A DNA stretch of 64,000 nt from Gammaproteobacteria bacterium (GTDB taxonomy: Bacteria; Pseudomonadota; Gammaproteobacteria; Chromatiales; Chromatiaceae), in contig JAABSM010000010.1 in NCBI GenBank assembly GCA_011390365.1, positions 2,714 to 66,713 on the forward strand. The letters run 5' to 3'. The position numbers and the translations under genes are program-made. Below are positions 35,040 to 50,339 of this stretch, piece by piece; the stretch's first letter is position 1; each line of letters starts with the position of its first letter. Below the pieces are notes generated by a model, which saw nothing but the letters and a program-made list of their open reading frames with translations, made no database searches and had not been told where the DNA came from.

Positions 35040-35252
35040 ATGCCAAGCGATCTGACGGACAGCGACCTCTTCGCCTCCCGCCTCTCCATCAAGCCCGAGA
35101 CCTTCTCCCGTATCCTTCACCACCTCTCCGGAGAAGAGGTGATTCAGCTCAAGGGTGGGTGGGTCAAGGTACTTGATGTCTCGGCGTTTCGGAGATTGGC
35201 GGAATCGGCGGGGGTTTGTGGGGGGAGTTTGGGGCCGGATGGGCGTGCTTGA
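35040..35252 (+). pseudogene. C-terminal HTH fragment of a Crp/Fnr-family regulator (cNMP-binding domain missing)
   Basis: ...DLFASRLSIKPETFSRILHHLSGEEVIQLKGGWVKVLDVSAFRRLAE is a Crp/Fnr HTH. The frame is closed by a stop at 34989-34991, so only ~65 codons of homology remain. Confidence 0.55.
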
Positions 35253-35490
35253 GGCGGTTGGCGATCAGGTTGAGGGGGAGGATGCTCCTCTTTGTTATTC
35301 GAGGCCTGTCAAGGTGTTGTGGGATCATGTGAGTTCCCGGGATTGACCCTGCATTTCGTATAAGGTAAAAACTCGACGAGATCGTTTTTTCTACTATTGC
35401 ATGCCTGCTCGGATGGCTGCGTGCATCTGTCAAAGGCTCACTGCGCGCGTTTCGCACAGGGAGAGGGACGGGTTTCTTAAGGAGTATGGT

Positions 35491-36264
35491 ATGTTAAAAG
35501 GCCAAAAGATTGTGGTTGTGATGCCGGCTTACAACGCGGAGGCAACGCTCGCGCAAACCTATCACGAGTTGCCGCGCCCTCTGGTTGATGAGGTCATCCT
35601 GGTGGATGATTGCAGTAATGATCAGACGGCTGATCGCGCCCGCGAACTGGGAATCAATCATGTCATTCGCCATGAACAAAACCTCGGTTATGGCGGAAAC
35701 CAGAAGACCTGCTACCGCAGGGCTCTGGAGGTGGGTGCGGATATCGTCATCATGATTCATCCGGATTATCAATATACTCCCAAGCTTTGCACGTCAATGG
35801 TATCAATGATCGCAGAGGGGCTTTTTGACTGCGTACTGGCCTCGCGGATTCTGGGAACCGGCGCCTTGCGGGGTGGAATGCCAAAGTACAAGTATGTCGC
35901 CAATCGCCTTCTTACCCTCTTTCAAAATGTCATGATCAGTCATAAGCTTTCCGAATACCATACTGGATACAGAGTATACTCCAGGCGAGTCCTTGAAAAA
36001 CTCCCACTGGACAACAACTCCGACGATTTTGTTTTCGATAATCAGGTGCTGGCGCAAATCATCTATGCCGGCTATCGGATTGGTGAGGTAACCTGTCCCA
36101 CCCGTTATGCCCCCGACTCATCATCCATCAGCTTTGCCAGATCCATGCGCTATGGCATCGGCGTGGTAAACACCAGTCTTGCCTTTCGCGCCCATCGCTG
36201 GAAGCTGCATGCAAGCCCGCTTTTTAGCCCCCTGGATGGCCAGGCCAAGAGCACAGGGAGTTGA
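35491..36264 (+). CDS. family 2 glycosyltransferase, Dpm1/polyprenol-phosphate-sugar synthase-like
   Basis: AAGGAG RBS. MLKGQKIVVVMPAYNAEATLAQT...VILVDDCSNDQTAD...NLGYGGNQK...IVIMIHPDYQYTP...GMPKYKYVANRLLT...LSEYHTGYRVYSRRVL matches the DPM/DPG-synthase-like GT2 layout. Confidence 0.8.
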   Translation: MLKGQKIVVVMPAYNAEATLAQTYHELPRPLVDEVILVDDCSNDQTADRARELGINHVIRHEQNLGYGGNQKTCYRRALEVGADIVIMIHPDYQYTPKLCTSMVSMIAEGLFDCVLASRILGTGALRGGMPKYKYVANRLLTLFQNVMISHKLSEYHTGYRVYSRRVLEKLPLDNNSDDFVFDNQVLAQIIYAGYRIGEVTCPTRYAPDSSSISFARSMRYGIGVVNTSLAFRAHRWKLHASPLFSPLDGQAKSTGS

Positions 36265-36272
36265 AGCCAGCC

Positions 36273-38033
36273 ATGCCCCATCATGCCCACTCGGTAAGTA
36301 TCCTGTCCCTGGTGCACAAGCTCTGGCCACCGGCGCTGCTGTTTGTTGTTGCACTTCTGGCCTATATGGGTGCGTTGGATAACGGCTTTGTCTGGGACTC
36401 GATCAAGTATGTCCCTGGCAATCCACATATTCAGCAGCTCAACAGCGAGAGCATTCTGTGGGCCTTCACCTCTACCTATTTTCTCAATTGGCACCCGATC
36501 ACCCACCTCTCCTACATGCTGGACTATCAGCTGTACGGCGGATATGTACCGGCCGGTTTTCATCTGACCAACATTCTTCTTCACGCCCTGAATGTCGTGA
36601 TCTTCTACTGGTTGGTCAGTAGATTGCTCCTTCTCCACGACCAACGTCAGCAGGAAAATAGGGAGTTAGGCAGGCGAGTCGCGGCGCTGGCTGCCGCCCT
36701 GATTTTTGCGATTCACCCCCAGCATGTCGAGTCGGTAGCCTGGGTTGCCGAGCGCAAGGATCTGCTGTTTCTCCTCTTCTATCTCGGTGCGATGCTGGCA
36801 TATCTGCGTTATGCAGCCAGGCCAGGGTGGCGCTGGTATCTGTTTACCCTGTTGCTTGCCTTTTTGTCGATGGGCTCCAAGGCGATGGCGGTGACTCTTC
36901 CGGCGGTATTGTTGTTACTGGATCTCTATCCGCTGCGGCGTGTTCCAGCTTTAAATCTGGCGAAACCCGGCGAATCCCTGAAACAATACGCCTTGCTGTT
37001 GGCAGAAAAAGGACCATTCGGCCTCCTTGCCCTCTTCGTTATCTGGGTGACGATTCAGGCCCAAGACGTCACATTGAATACCTTTGAGCTTGACGTGGTC
37101 GACCGGCTAGGTGGCGCGGCCTTCGCGTACTTCTCCTATTTGAGCAAAATGTTCGCCCCCACCCTATTTCTGCCCCTTTATCCCAGGGATGTATCCCTGG
37201 GATTCATGGACTATGCGCCCTATTTTATCGCATTTATAGCAATGACCTTTCTAAGCTGGTATGGATGGCGGAAGGGATCCCCCTGGTGGCTGGTTGCATG
37301 GCTGTTCTATGTGGTGACCCTGTTACCGGTATCGGGACTGGTGCAGGTTGGTGATCAGGTCGCTGCTGATCGCTATGCGTATCTCCCACTGTTGGCCGCT
37401 TATCTTGTTCTTGGCGGGTGGTTTGGGCAGCTGTTTGCCAATGGCAGTCGGCGGAGGCGTGTTATCCTTGTTCTTGTTTTTCTGATGATTACCGGCGGAC
37501 TGCTGGCCAAAACCCGGACACAAGTAGCTATCTGGCGGAACGATTTGGTGCTCTGGTCCCATGTGGAGGAGATCTACCCGGACAATCGCTTTGTGATCAG
37601 CCAGATTGCCGGGATGTCCTATGTGCTGAAAGAGTGGGGGCTGGCGCTCAAGTACTACGAGACTATGTTGGACAATAGGCAACTTCGTGGTCATCTCATG
37701 CCCCGTTATGCGTTATTGCTTATTTACGAGGGTGAATACAAGCAGGCGCTGAAGGCCTACCACTGGATGGCCCGGATCCAGGGCGAGACCCTGATACCGG
37801 CTGACTGCATCTACTACAACATCGCCTGGATCCATGGGGTCCAGGGTAATCCTGACCAATATGCCGAGGCGATGGGACGGATTGAGAGCCCCGAATATCT
37901 TGGCATTCTGCCCGCTGGGTTGCCAGATGGCAATCCCATACCGGCAAGTGAGATGCCCTATCTCTGCATACGTGACCCGTACGCGGATAGCTTGCGCGAT
38001 GCGCACGACAAGAATGTACTCAAGGCGCGCTGA
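36273..38033 (+). CDS. GT-C fold membrane glycosyltransferase with C-terminal TPR (TMTC / PMT_2 / DUF1736-like), paralog 1
   Basis: ~11 TM helices. First-loop motif GALDNGFVWDSIKYV. ...WHPITHLSYMLDYQLYG..., IHPQHVESVAWVAERKDLLF. TPR-like tail (YVLKEWGLALKYYETML...). Start overlaps the GT2 stop region. Confidence 0.78.
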   Translation: MPHHAHSVSILSLVHKLWPPALLFVVALLAYMGALDNGFVWDSIKYVPGNPHIQQLNSESILWAFTSTYFLNWHPITHLSYMLDYQLYGGYVPAGFHLTNILLHALNVVIFYWLVSRLLLLHDQRQQENRELGRRVAALAAALIFAIHPQHVESVAWVAERKDLLFLLFYLGAMLAYLRYAARPGWRWYLFTLLLAFLSMGSKAMAVTLPAVLLLLDLYPLRRVPALNLAKPGESLKQYALLLAEKGPFGLLALFVIWVTIQAQDVTLNTFELDVVDRLGGAAFAYFSYLSKMFAPTLFLPLYPRDVSLGFMDYAPYFIAFIAMTFLSWYGWRKGSPWWLVAWLFYVVTLLPVSGLVQVGDQVAADRYAYLPLLAAYLVLGGWFGQLFANGSRRRRVILVLVFLMITGGLLAKTRTQVAIWRNDLVLWSHVEEIYPDNRFVISQIAGMSYVLKEWGLALKYYETMLDNRQLRGHLMPRYALLLIYEGEYKQALKAYHWMARIQGETLIPADCIYYNIAWIHGVQGNPDQYAEAMGRIESPEYLGILPAGLPDGNPIPASEMPYLCIRDPYADSLRDAHDKNVLKAR

Positions 38034-38036
38034 ATT

Positions 38037-49380: not shown

Positions 49381-49409
49381 TCGTCTCCATGTGACGAAAA
49401 GTGTCAGTT
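49381..49409 (+). promoter_or_regulatory. conserved 29-nt upstream element (candidate UAS) of pilin 2
   Basis: tcgtctccatgtgacgaaaagtgtcagtt; see 42279-42307. About 140 bp upstream of the sigma54 promoter. Confidence 0.5.
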
Positions 49410-49548
49410 TATCCTGATGGTGCGCTAAACTATCGACGGTGAGAGGTGTTCCGTCATTCACGAGGGGGCTGCTATCCAGGGTAAAACGGCAACGAGCGGG
49501 GTTCTTCCGCTGGTATTTTTCGTGCTGTGGTTCGCTGCATCATGAATC

Positions 49549-49563
49549 TGGCATGGCTTGTGC
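49549..49563 (+). promoter_or_regulatory. sigma54 (-24/-12) promoter of pilin 2
   Basis: TGGCATggcttGTGC: GG-N10-GC spacing correct. About 90 nt upstream of ATG 49652. Confidence 0.65.
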
Positions 49564-49651
49564 TCGCATATCGAGCCAAGTCGCAAGAGATGTTCCGCCA
49601 AGTCTTACAGTCATAGGTGAAAACGAGTTGATGGTTTTACAAGGGGGTAAC

Positions 49652-50083
49652 ATGAAAAGGCCTCACGGAGGTTTTACGCTCGTCGAGTTGATGATCGTTG
49701 TCGCGATCATTGGCATATTAGCGTCAATAGCCATACCGGCATACCAGCAATACATTGCCAAGACTCAAGTCCAGGTTGTTGTCAGTGAGATGGCTTGGGT
49801 AAAGAGCATTGTTGATGAACAGATGTTTCGTGGTCAGCCGGTGAATGCCTGTCCAGAAGCAGGCTACAGTGGCTCCAGTTTGATTTGGGAGTGCGAGTCG
49901 CATTTTACTGGCGAAGGGATTGGTAGTATTCGAGGTACAATGGGGAAGCATGCCTCAGCACCCATCGTTGGCACGGTTGTGGTTATGGAGCGGGCTGGTA
50001 GCGGCGCTTGGAGTTGTTCGGTAAGCGGGAGCGGTGCTGGATGGAGGGAGGAATATGTTCCGAAAAACTGTACATCGCTATAA
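49652..50083 (+). CDS. type IVa major-pilin-like protein (pilin 2)
   Basis: Leader MKRPHGG then [33 protein letters not shown]-terminal ...[22 protein letters not shown] parallels pilin 1. ORF opens at 49439; ATG 49652 with a GGGGG RBS is preferred. Confidence 0.9.
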
Positions 50084-50339
50084 AGCTTGATACTACCAGC
50101 GGAACTCCTGCAACGTGTCATGGAGAATGCTCGCTTAACCAAAACCAGACGCCTTTGTCCCAGATGACAGGGGATTTTCGGGAATGTATAGCTCCGGCTG
50201 GCCTGCATTTCGCCCTGTACGCAAGGCGTGAACACCTGCGCGTCGCGCAACGTAAAGATTGGCGCAATGCTGCAGGTAGTGTGGAAGGCATAGGCATGCG
50301 AGTAAATAATCGATAGCCCCCCCTCCATGTTGAAGGGAT

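Follow-up and report, generated by a model that had tools for sequence, protein, structure and literature searches.

Comparison of the island with known glycosylation systems

The glycosyltransferase TfpW of Pseudomonas aeruginosa group IV is a protein of 646 amino acids (aa) with 11 transmembrane (TM) segments, a periplasmic C-terminal domain of tetratricopeptide repeats (TPRs), and an essential DDx motif; it is encoded downstream of the pilin gene pilA and has homologs in Azotobacter, Acinetobacter, Teredinibacter, and Kingella (bioRxiv 10.1101/2020.04.19.049825). Pilin glycosylation by TfpW or TfpO guards Pseudomonas from pilus-specific phages and alters the surface chemistry of the pilus (PMC11841053). 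Here we analyze an island of ~15 kb (positions 35040-50339) in a 64-kb stretch of DNA from a gammaproteobacterium of the Chromatiaceae family (contig JAABSM010000010.1; the whole stretch of 64,000 nucleotides is called the window below). The island is bordered by the gene of an AcuI-like dehydrogenase to its left and by gltX to its right, and it is likely to represent a TfpW-type locus for O-glycosylation of type IV pilins that operates on a three-component periplasmic pathway. All eleven genes named in the initial annotation of the island are present in the order and orientation given there, as seen from the list of open reading frames (ORFs) and from Pfam and NCBIfam scans:

35491..36264, + strand, GT2, a polyprenyl-phosphate sugar synthase of the Dpm1/GtrB/PpgS type (257 aa; Glycos_transf_2, 83 bits)
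36273..38033, + strand, GT-C1, a membrane GT-C protein with a C-terminal helical/TPR-like domain (586 aa; start codon from the gene call in the same-species contig L002)
38037..39002, + strand, S-adenosylmethionine-dependent methyltransferase (321 aa; Methyltransf_23, 89 bits)
39190..40212, - strand, LPG_synthase_TM (UPF0104) flippase-like membrane protein (340 aa; Pfam, 112 bits; TIGR00374 'flippase-like domain', 48.7 bits, above the cut-off)
40205..42127, - strand, candidate TfpW-like GT-C/TPR pilin glycosyltransferase (640 aa; synteny, DD motif, and AlphaFold2 (AF2) model)
42553..42993, + strand, type IVa pilin 1 (146 aa; Pilin, 60.7 bits; N_methyl, 40.6 bits)
43204..45008, + strand, TPR-sulfotransferase 1 (ST1), read in two frames (Sulfotransfer_3, 143 bits)
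45087..45407, + strand, small conserved protein paired with TPR-sulfotransferase genes (106 aa; recognized by neighborhood, no Pfam match)
45486..47339, + strand, TPR-sulfotransferase 2 (ST2, 617 aa; Sulfotransfer_3, 138 bits, and TPRs)
47423..48910, + strand, GT-C3, ending in a short TPR region and immediately preceding pilin 2 (495 aa; weak PMT_2 match, AF2 model)
49652..50083, + strand, type IVa pilin 2 (143 aa; Pilin, 42.8 bits; N_methyl, 36.6 bits; ATG at 49652 read from the sequence)

The closest described counterpart is the TfpW system of P. aeruginosa Pa5196 and PA7. Each system has a GT-C protein of ~640 aa that ends in a TPR domain and carries a DDx motif in its first loop, and the gene adjoins that of the major pilin. 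They also share a sigma54-type pilin promoter and a polyprenyl-phosphate-linked donor (presumed for the island); in the window, a DprE1/DprE2-like pair is found 25 kb away. The differences are that the island gene is divergent from the pilin gene, whereas tfpW lies downstream of it, and that the island adds GT2, the flippase-like protein, the methyltransferase, two GT-C paralogs, a second pilin, and two sulfotransferases and has no TfpX. Among these, the unusual features are the extra TMTC-like GT-C paralogs with their own GT2, the second pilin and, above all, the two TPR-sulfotransferases in the position of accessory genes.

Three-component periplasmic glycosylation systems have been described (PMC11127046, PMC11194591), including GtrA/B/C, ArnC/ArnEF/ArnT, and the PPPRS/MATE/GT-C systems of Kelly et al. 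(2024). As proposed for the island, they load polyprenyl phosphate with a sugar through a cytoplasmic synthase, carry the product across with a flippase, and use a GT-C enzyme to transfer a single sugar extracytoplasmically. Unlike them, the island has an LPG_synthase_TM (MprF-like) protein as its candidate flippase and no GtrA, SMR, or MATE protein, its GT-C proteins carry TPR domains, and the acceptor appears to be a pilin rather than a polysaccharide or lipid A. A remote similarity links the island with the eukaryotic O-mannosyltransferases TMTC1-4 and PMT, in which a GT-C core is likewise followed by TPRs, the polyprenyl-phosphate monosaccharide donor is made by a Dpm1-like GT2, and Ser/Thr residues of proteins are the acceptors; the island proteins differ by the lack of DUF1736 and by PMT_2 scores at or below the threshold, and GT-C1 and GT-C3 have a single invariant Asp (W42-D43) where TMTCs have DD. 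Finally, TfpO/PilO and PglL are likewise periplasmic modifiers of type IV pilins that draw on a lipid-linked donor, with tfpO located downstream of pilA, but these enzymes belong to the unrelated Wzy_C/O-antigen ligase-like family and transfer undecaprenyl-pyrophosphate-linked oligosaccharides en bloc.

The TfpW-like protein and its flippase-like partner

The 640-aa protein has no Pfam or NCBIfam match of its own and belongs to a family with 3,185 representatives at E<=1e-30 among clusters of 50% identity. In each of the six distant loci examined, the gene of a full-length homolog (36-44% identity) immediately follows a pilin gene in the same orientation: Pseudomonas citronellolis (L084, beside pilBCD), Geopseudomonas aromaticivorans (L085), Acinetobacter celticus (L086), Ca. 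Contendobacter (L172), Colwellia (L173), and a JGI genome (L176). A GT2 gene is present in each of the six and follows the homolog directly in five. Genes for an LPG_synthase_TM protein and a Methyltransf_23 enzyme, the latter of the same Pfam class as the island methyltransferase, also occur in L172, L173, and L176, and a MatE protein and a Methyltransf_23 enzyme are encoded near the homolog in L085. The Ca. Contendobacter locus contains two pilin genes followed by two paralogs of the 640-aa protein. TfpW-like enzymes appear to form a large family (~3,200 representative clusters) tied to varied, largely uncharacterized glycan-supply cassettes, and the recurrent combination of GT2, an MprF-like flippase candidate, and a methyltransferase would be a supply route unlike the D-arabinofuranose pathway of P. 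aeruginosa. The locus had been taken as undescribed in the initial annotation; its core recurs in Colwellia, Ca. Contendobacter, and the JGI genome, whereas no description of the combination of pilin, GT-C, and sulfotransferase genes was found in the literature searched.

The motif Y38-F-D40-D41-H follows the first TM segment of the 640-aa protein, and both D40 and D41 are invariant in 36 homologs. In a second motif, Y282-X6-P289-X6-P296-F297, the part Y282-X6-P289-X6-P296 is invariant among the homologs; it resembles the published YX6PFX7P motif and the YX6PX5P motif of EmbC and is identical to neither. Some ten hydrophobic segments extend up to residue 409. The AF2 model, with a predicted local distance difference test score (pLDDT) of 89.7, consists of a helical membrane core and an all-alpha, TPR-like C-terminal domain with paired helices at residues 415-639 that match TPR proteins including PilF; this domain would be periplasmic. 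An hhalign comparison joins the family of the 640-aa protein with that of GT-C1 and GT-C3 (probability 99.4%, E 5.5e-22, 526 columns) and, together with the fold of GT-C3 described below, identifies all three membrane proteins as GT-C proteins with C-terminal helical repeats.

The flippase-like gene overlaps at its start with the stop of the 640-aa gene by 8 nt, and the GT2 and GT-C1 ORFs overlap by 4 nt. These overlaps point to two co-translated pairs, GT2 with GT-C1 and, probably, the 640-aa gene with the flippase-like gene. Since the homologs of the 640-aa protein share with TfpW the gene position, the size, the domain architecture, and the DDx motif, the core of the island can be interpreted as a TfpW-type cassette. 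The assignment of the 640-aa protein to the TfpW-type family is well supported but indirect; it draws on the published description of TfpW and on the Pseudomonas and Acinetobacter homologs in the TfpW position, and a tblastn search of plasmids for TfpW gave no match.

The domain and fold assignments, the synteny, and the motifs are observations; the sugar donor and its acceptor, what GT-C1 and GT-C3 do, and whether the sulfotransferases take part are inferred from them as follows. GT2 would charge polyprenyl phosphate with a sugar at the cytoplasmic face of the inner membrane, and the methyltransferase probably methylates the lipid-linked sugar or the glycan. The LPG_synthase_TM protein, co-transcribed with the overlapping 640-aa gene, may flip the lipid-linked donor or help to flip it, and the 640-aa TfpW-like protein would then transfer the sugar to Ser/Thr of the pilin by means of its periplasmic DDx site and TPR domain. 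GT-C1, coupled to GT2, and GT-C3, encoded directly upstream of pilin 2, are remote paralogs that probably attach or elongate sugars or act on the second pilin. Both pilins would be expressed from sigma54 promoters with a shared upstream palindrome. If the two TPR-sulfotransferases and the small protein are involved at all, their most plausible step would be a cytoplasmic sulfation of the lipid-linked sugar ahead of flipping. If TfpW and TfpO are a guide, the system probably serves to mask pili from pilus-specific phages or to provide antigenic variation. The original proposal of a pilin-modification island is very likely correct, given the position of the 640-aa family beside pilins in six of six loci and the presence of GT2, flippase-like, and GT-C proteins; the parts of it that fared worse are sulfation and the dedication of GT-C1 and GT-C3 to pilins.

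Several observations weigh against this scheme. The published proline motif of TfpW, YX6PFX7P, has no exact match in the 640-aa protein, and the 640-aa gene, whose start is separated by 425 bp from pilin 1 on the other strand, is divergent from it, unlike tfpW downstream of pilA. The top Foldseek match of the 640-aa model, STT3, is weak (E 2e-3, TM 0.34) and mixed with TPR proteins. To our knowledge, LPG_synthase_TM proteins have not been proven to be glycolipid flippases, and the locus bears on whether they flip polyprenyl-phosphate sugars. The GT2 proteins encoded beside the 640-aa homologs elsewhere are only distantly related to the island GT2 (E 1e-9 to 1e-13), which, to judge from the neighborhoods, goes with the GT-C1/GT-C3 family, a family rarely found near pilins. 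Finally, neither pilBCD nor pilSR genes are present in the 64-kb window.

Pilins and their promoters

Pilins 1 and 2 are 53% identical, and each has four cysteines and an SGSG segment in the C-terminal loop; the length of 143 aa for pilin 2 agrees with the gene call in L001, a relative about 90% identical to the island at the nucleotide level. The following regulatory elements were identified at the two genes:

42288..42304, + strand, palindromic element TGTGACGAAAAATGTCA, candidate enhancer (PilR-type) site for pilin 1
42456..42471, + strand, sigma54-type -24/-12 promoter of pilin 1, TGGCACGCGAACTGCA (pattern match; conserved in L001)
43014..43043, + strand, intrinsic terminator after pilin 1 (13-bp stem followed by a T-run; -21 kcal/mol, z = -4.6)
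49390..49406, + strand, second copy of the palindromic element, TGTGACGAAAAGTGTCA (pattern match)
49549..49564, + strand, sigma54-type -24/-12 promoter of pilin 2, TGGCATGGCTTGTGCT (pattern match; identical in L001)

The two promoter elements, TGGCAC-N5-CTGCA and TGGCAT-N5-GTGCT, are located 82-88 bp before the pilin ATGs. The pattern TGGCA[CT]-N5-NTGC[ACT] has three matches on both strands of the 64 kb, two of which precede the pilins, and the same type of -24/-12 motif is found upstream of pilA in L084-L086. The claim that the pilins are sigma54-driven was thus borne out at the level of motifs, which stand upstream of both genes and are conserved in L001. The palindrome TGTGACGAAAA[AG]TGTCA occurs just twice in the window, 159-168 bp ahead of the two pilin promoter elements, and is also conserved in L001; PilR may bind at this shared site. 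The third match to the sigma54 pattern (TGGCATAGGATGTGCC, 14827-14842, + strand), ~950 bp upstream of the DprE1-like gene, faces the antisense strand of nudE and is probably fortuitous.

The terminator after pilin 1 was missed by the terminator scan, where the A/T extension of the stem absorbs the T-run, and was confirmed by folding. It places the sulfotransferase genes and GT-C3 in the classical position of pilin accessory genes, downstream of the pilin, as described for P. aeruginosa (PMC11841053).

TPR-sulfotransferases and the small protein encoded between them

The frameshift initially reported for ST1 is present in the window, where it is caused by two additional bases in a G7 homopolymer (43506-43512), but the gene is intact (600 aa) in L001 and in 99%-identical sequences from other samples (including P0243). 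These intact copies indicate a sequencing or assembly error or a strain-level or phase-variable change, the last by strand slippage, and not gene decay. The Sulfotransfer_3 domain contains the motif G-x-P-R-S-G (5'-phosphosulfate-binding loop) and a downstream stretch P-x-D-x-C, invariant in 19 homologs. Among solved domains, the polyketide sulfotransferases CurM and OLS and the tyrosylprotein sulfotransferases TPST1/2 come nearest, all about equally close (E about 5e-9 to 8e-8), so that these matches give no hint to the substrate. A hydropathy scan of ST2 detected no membrane segment, and the N-termini of ST1 and ST2, read by eye without a signal-peptide predictor, contain nothing signal-peptide-like, which suggests that both enzymes are probably cytoplasmic.

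The sulfate donor 3'-phosphoadenosine-5'-phosphosulfate is cytoplasmic, and the head domain of a pilin is periplasmic. With the sulfotransferases on the cytoplasmic side as well, direct sulfation of the pilins is topologically unlikely. Direct sulfation of pilin tyrosines by TPST-like enzymes was considered and rejected, as there is no membrane segment and the TPSTs are no closer than the polyketide sulfotransferases. The sole plausible route to sulfated pili would be sulfation of the lipid-linked sugar before flipping, which we consider unlikely. A cytoplasmic sulfation of a lipid-linked hexose is known for Agl7 of Haloferax volcanii (PMC3892788). There, sulfation of a dolichyl-phosphate hexose on the cytoplasmic side precedes its flipping and its transfer to a surface protein; that pathway is archaeal and N-linked, and its likeness to the TPR-sulfotransferases is by analogy only. 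The most elaborate form of the hypothesis, pili with a sulfated and probably methylated O-glycan for which the TPR-sulfotransferases and the small protein sulfate an undecaprenyl-phosphate sugar, the MprF-like protein flips it, and three GT-C/TPR proteins transfer it to two pilins, is improbable. If the sulfotransferases did act on a pilin glycan, sulfate would join the modifications of bacterial protein glycans, and this would be the first sulfated pilin glycan and the first function for the widespread 'orphan' bacterial TPR-sulfotransferases; the locus also bears on whether these enzymes act on lipid-linked sugars.

An alternative explanation, to which we give about the same weight as to its opposite, is that the sulfotransferases are unrelated cargo with no role in the pilus, and that the small protein and the TPR-sulfotransferases act on a cytoplasmic substrate such as the small protein itself, a TPR-bound protein, or a metabolite. 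In 80 metagenomic loci of relatives with 32-38% identity, a pilin gene and a GT-C gene were each found only once, and all-against-all clustering of ORFs within 6 kb revealed no neighbor family in more than six loci. Two larger clusters, in 62 and 21 loci, were discarded as antisense ORFs of the sulfotransferase gene itself. In the pilin-free loci L167 and L168, a homolog of the small ORF immediately precedes the gene of a 40%-identical TPR-sulfotransferase, and it also stands before a TPR-sulfotransferase gene in L112, so that the small protein looks like a dedicated partner or substrate of this subfamily. The lack of a predicted membrane segment and the equal distance of the domain from TPST and CurM sulfotransferases also fit a cytoplasmic substrate, as does a pilin-free locus (L169, 2208-11830) where three TPR-sulfotransferases stand beside a TPR-GT41 (O-GlcNAc-transferase-like) protein and a polysaccharide export protein. 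On the other hand, the genes occupy the classical accessory position past the pilin 1 terminator, on the same strand, and sit between pilin 1 and the pair of GT-C3 and pilin 2. In addition, the order pilin - ST1 - small ORF - ST2 is kept in L001 and in L170 (~70% protein identity), although only within this lineage.

The small protein is 106-110 aa long and begins with MDLFFW or MGLFFW; further copies are found in L167 (9672-10004), L112 (3-224), and L170 (3022-3342).

These counts bear on two earlier claims. The co-occurrence of pilin, GT-C, and sulfotransferase genes holds within this lineage, but outside it pilins are found in one of the 80 sulfotransferase loci and sulfotransferases in none of the 79 loci of the GT-C1/GT-C3 family described below; the link of the sulfotransferases to pilins, confined to three related genomes, is unproven. 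Sulfated pili, suggested in the initial annotation, were not upheld, given the probable cytoplasmic location of the enzymes and the variable context of their relatives.

GT2, GT-C1, GT-C3, and the methyltransferase

The assignment of GT2 as a Dpm1-like enzyme was confirmed: in addition to Glycos_transf_2, its best partial NCBIfam matches, all under the equivalog cut-offs, are PpgS, AglJ, dolichyl-P-hexose transferase, and ArnC, that is, polyprenyl-phosphate glycosyltransferases. As for the other expected profiles, those of LPG_synthase_TM, N_methyl, and Sulfotransfer_3 were detected together with Glycos_transf_2, but PMT_2 stays below its threshold in GT-C3 (25.1 bits versus a gathering threshold of 26.1) and matches six of 36 members of the family, and DUF1736 has no match in the GT-C proteins of the island. 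GT-C1, which has no Pfam or NCBIfam match of its own, is 40% identical to GT-C3. Invariant in their family are W42-D43 after the first TM segment, HPQHxESVxWxxERKD, and ADRYAY. The AF2 model of GT-C3 is of high quality (pLDDT 88.8; predicted TM-score 0.90), and the top 17 matches of a Foldseek search of the Protein Data Bank are all GT-C enzymes (STT3, Pmt4 with TMq 0.50, PglB, AglB), followed by Pmt1/2 and EmbB.

The GT-C1/GT-C3 family has at least 599 matches in representative genomes of GTDB, the best being 38-39% identical; it spans many phyla and often forms tandem arrays of two to six genes. Neighborhoods were counted over the 79 loci kept (L005-L083). An ortholog of the island GT2 is present in 12 of them (11 with 57-67% identity and one with 46%), from Gammaproteobacteria, Nitrospirota, Gemmatimonadota, Planctomycetota, and Desulfobacterota, and it stands beside the GT-C array in most of the loci with coordinates examined. 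The methyltransferase is found in a few of the 79 loci; in L005 and L006 its orthologs adjoin a GT2 or GT-C gene. Pilin-like genes occur in only four to six loci, and a sulfotransferase gene in none. These counts suggest that GT2 and GT-C/TPR proteins, sometimes with the methyltransferase, constitute a widespread and apparently uncharacterized module that is not specific to pilins as a family, and the locus bears on the acceptors of such bacterial TMTC-like enzymes across many phyla. The earlier view of three GT-C proteins dedicated to the pilins next to them is accordingly retained for the 640-aa family (pilins in six of six loci) and not for the family of GT-C1 and GT-C3 (pilins in four to six of 79).

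Arrays of up to six GT-C/TPR genes (for example, in L018, L021, L030, L034, and L049) were observed in Verrucomicrobiota, Planctomycetota, Desulfobacterota, Gemmatimonadota, and Nitrospirota.

It is conceivable, although clearly less probable than a common role of the island in pilin glycosylation, that the island is a mosaic. In that case, only the 640-aa protein with its flippase-like partner would serve the pilins, GT2, GT-C1, and the methyltransferase as well as GT-C3 would act on other periplasmic or outer-membrane acceptors (a general O-glycosylation target or a polysaccharide), and the modules would be co-located because pilin loci are hot spots for horizontally acquired DNA. The size and phyletic spread of the GT-C1/GT-C3 family, its frequent tandem arrays, and the prevalence of GT2 over pilin-like genes among its neighbors are in agreement with this explanation. 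So is the variation of GC content between the modules: it is 59-62% in the genes of the methyltransferase, the flippase-like protein, and the 640-aa protein and 52-54% in GT2 and GT-C1, and the lowest values in the island are those of GT-C3 (46%), the small ORF (48%), and pilin 2 (51%). The right flank of the island, moreover, differs between the window and L001, with a breakpoint just past pilin 2. Against a mosaic stand the location of GT-C3 directly upstream of pilin 2, the conservation of the full arrangement in three related genomes, and the Ca. Contendobacter locus, which likewise combines two pilins with two TfpW-like paralogs. Five of six pilin-like ORFs in the GT-C1/GT-C3 loci lie within 2.5 kb of a GT-C gene (binomial p = 0.03), a weak signal from small numbers in the same direction.

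It is very unlikely that the island modifies the lipopolysaccharide O-antigen or an exopolysaccharide in the periplasm in a Gtr/ArnT-like manner with the pilins as bystanders, because, even though GT2, flippase, and GT-C are also the logic of O-antigen and lipid A modification (PMC11127046) and a Wzc-like tyrosine kinase is encoded 5.6 kb to the right, Pfam scans detected no Wzx, Wzy, initiating transferase, or polysaccharide export gene inside the island, the genes of gltX, a Sel1/SPOR protein, and an MscS channel separate the kinase from it, the 640-aa family stands next to pilins in all six loci, and the TPR domains suggest a protein acceptor. The absence of exopolysaccharide and O-antigen genes noted initially is therefore true of the island itself but must be qualified for its surroundings by this kinase (Wzz, GNVR, and P-loop domains; 55995-58274, - strand), around which the window contains no other polysaccharide genes.

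Possible sources of the donor sugar

DprE1 and DprE2 make polyprenyl-phosphate-arabinofuranose in mycobacteria and in the TfpW system of P. aeruginosa. A similar pair is encoded in the window outside the island, between nudE and the AMMECR1 gene:

15783-17084, + strand, DprE1-like flavin adenine dinucleotide-dependent oxidase (NCBIfam DprE1, full length, E 1.3e-118, 397 bits; cut-off 500)
17235-17972, + strand, DprE2-like short-chain dehydrogenase/reductase (NCBIfam DprE2, E 6.5e-53, 180 bits; cut-off 250; the generic model of this dehydrogenase family scores higher)

The cut-offs are those of the mycobacterial equivalogs. The pair is a possible, although uncertain, source of polyprenyl-phosphate-arabinofuranose for the island. 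Pfam scans of nearly all ORFs of at least 200 aa and a hydrophobicity scan for multiple TM segments detected no UbiA-type or PAP2 candidate for the D-arabinofuranose phosphoribosyltransferase or phosphatase in the window. The Pribosyltran ORF at 60676-61320, a soluble type-I phosphoribosyltransferase, was set aside. As no phosphoribosyltransferase of the required kind was found in the window, the donor is probably of hexose type rather than, or in addition to, D-arabinofuranose.

Conservation, base composition, and genomic context of the island

The complete arrangement is shared by three related genomes. The island is kept in L001 at about 90% nucleotide identity, and pieces of it in a relative with 67-71% identity at the protein level (L170, L174). 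L001 aligns to window positions 37388-50088, and the homology ends a few bases past pilin 2 (position 50088 of the window and 12349 of L001), after which the sequences diverge fully: L001 continues with msrA and other genes, and the window with gltX. The right junction thus differs between genomes that are 90% identical, and it is a point of rearrangement or insertion. A stretch of ~350 bp between GT-C3 and pilin 2 (48950-49299), containing short GC-rich inverted repeats, is missing from L001. The possibility that this insertion is a repeat or a miniature inverted-repeat transposable element was rejected, since no further copy was found in the window, the fetched loci, or plasmids.

The GC content of the island is 54.6%, compared to 63.4% in the left flank and 61.6% in the right flank. 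The island was correctly recognized as lower in GC than its flanks from hand counts, but the figures of 45-50% for the island and ~65% for the flanks were wrong; the measured minimum is 42.6% at 47.5-48.0 kb, where 30-45% had been estimated around 47.5 kb. One further ORF marks the left edge of the island:

35040..35252, + strand, HTH_Crp_2-like short ORF (70 aa; Pfam HTH_Crp_2, E 2e-6; gene-called in the same-species contigs L002 and L003)

Scans of the island for tRNA genes and Rfam families gave no match, and PADLOC detected nothing beyond a generic methyltransferase match. The other genes of the window are mostly housekeeping according to Pfam scans. To the left of the island, a metallo-beta-lactamase-fold protein in a chromosomal context (26853-27701, + strand) matches the Pfam family Anti-Pycsar Apyc1 with 121 bits. 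It is followed by two uncharacterized ORFs on the + strand, one of 285 aa without a family match (28896-29753) and one of 988 aa (29750-32716), whose sole match is a weak proprotein-convertase P-domain.

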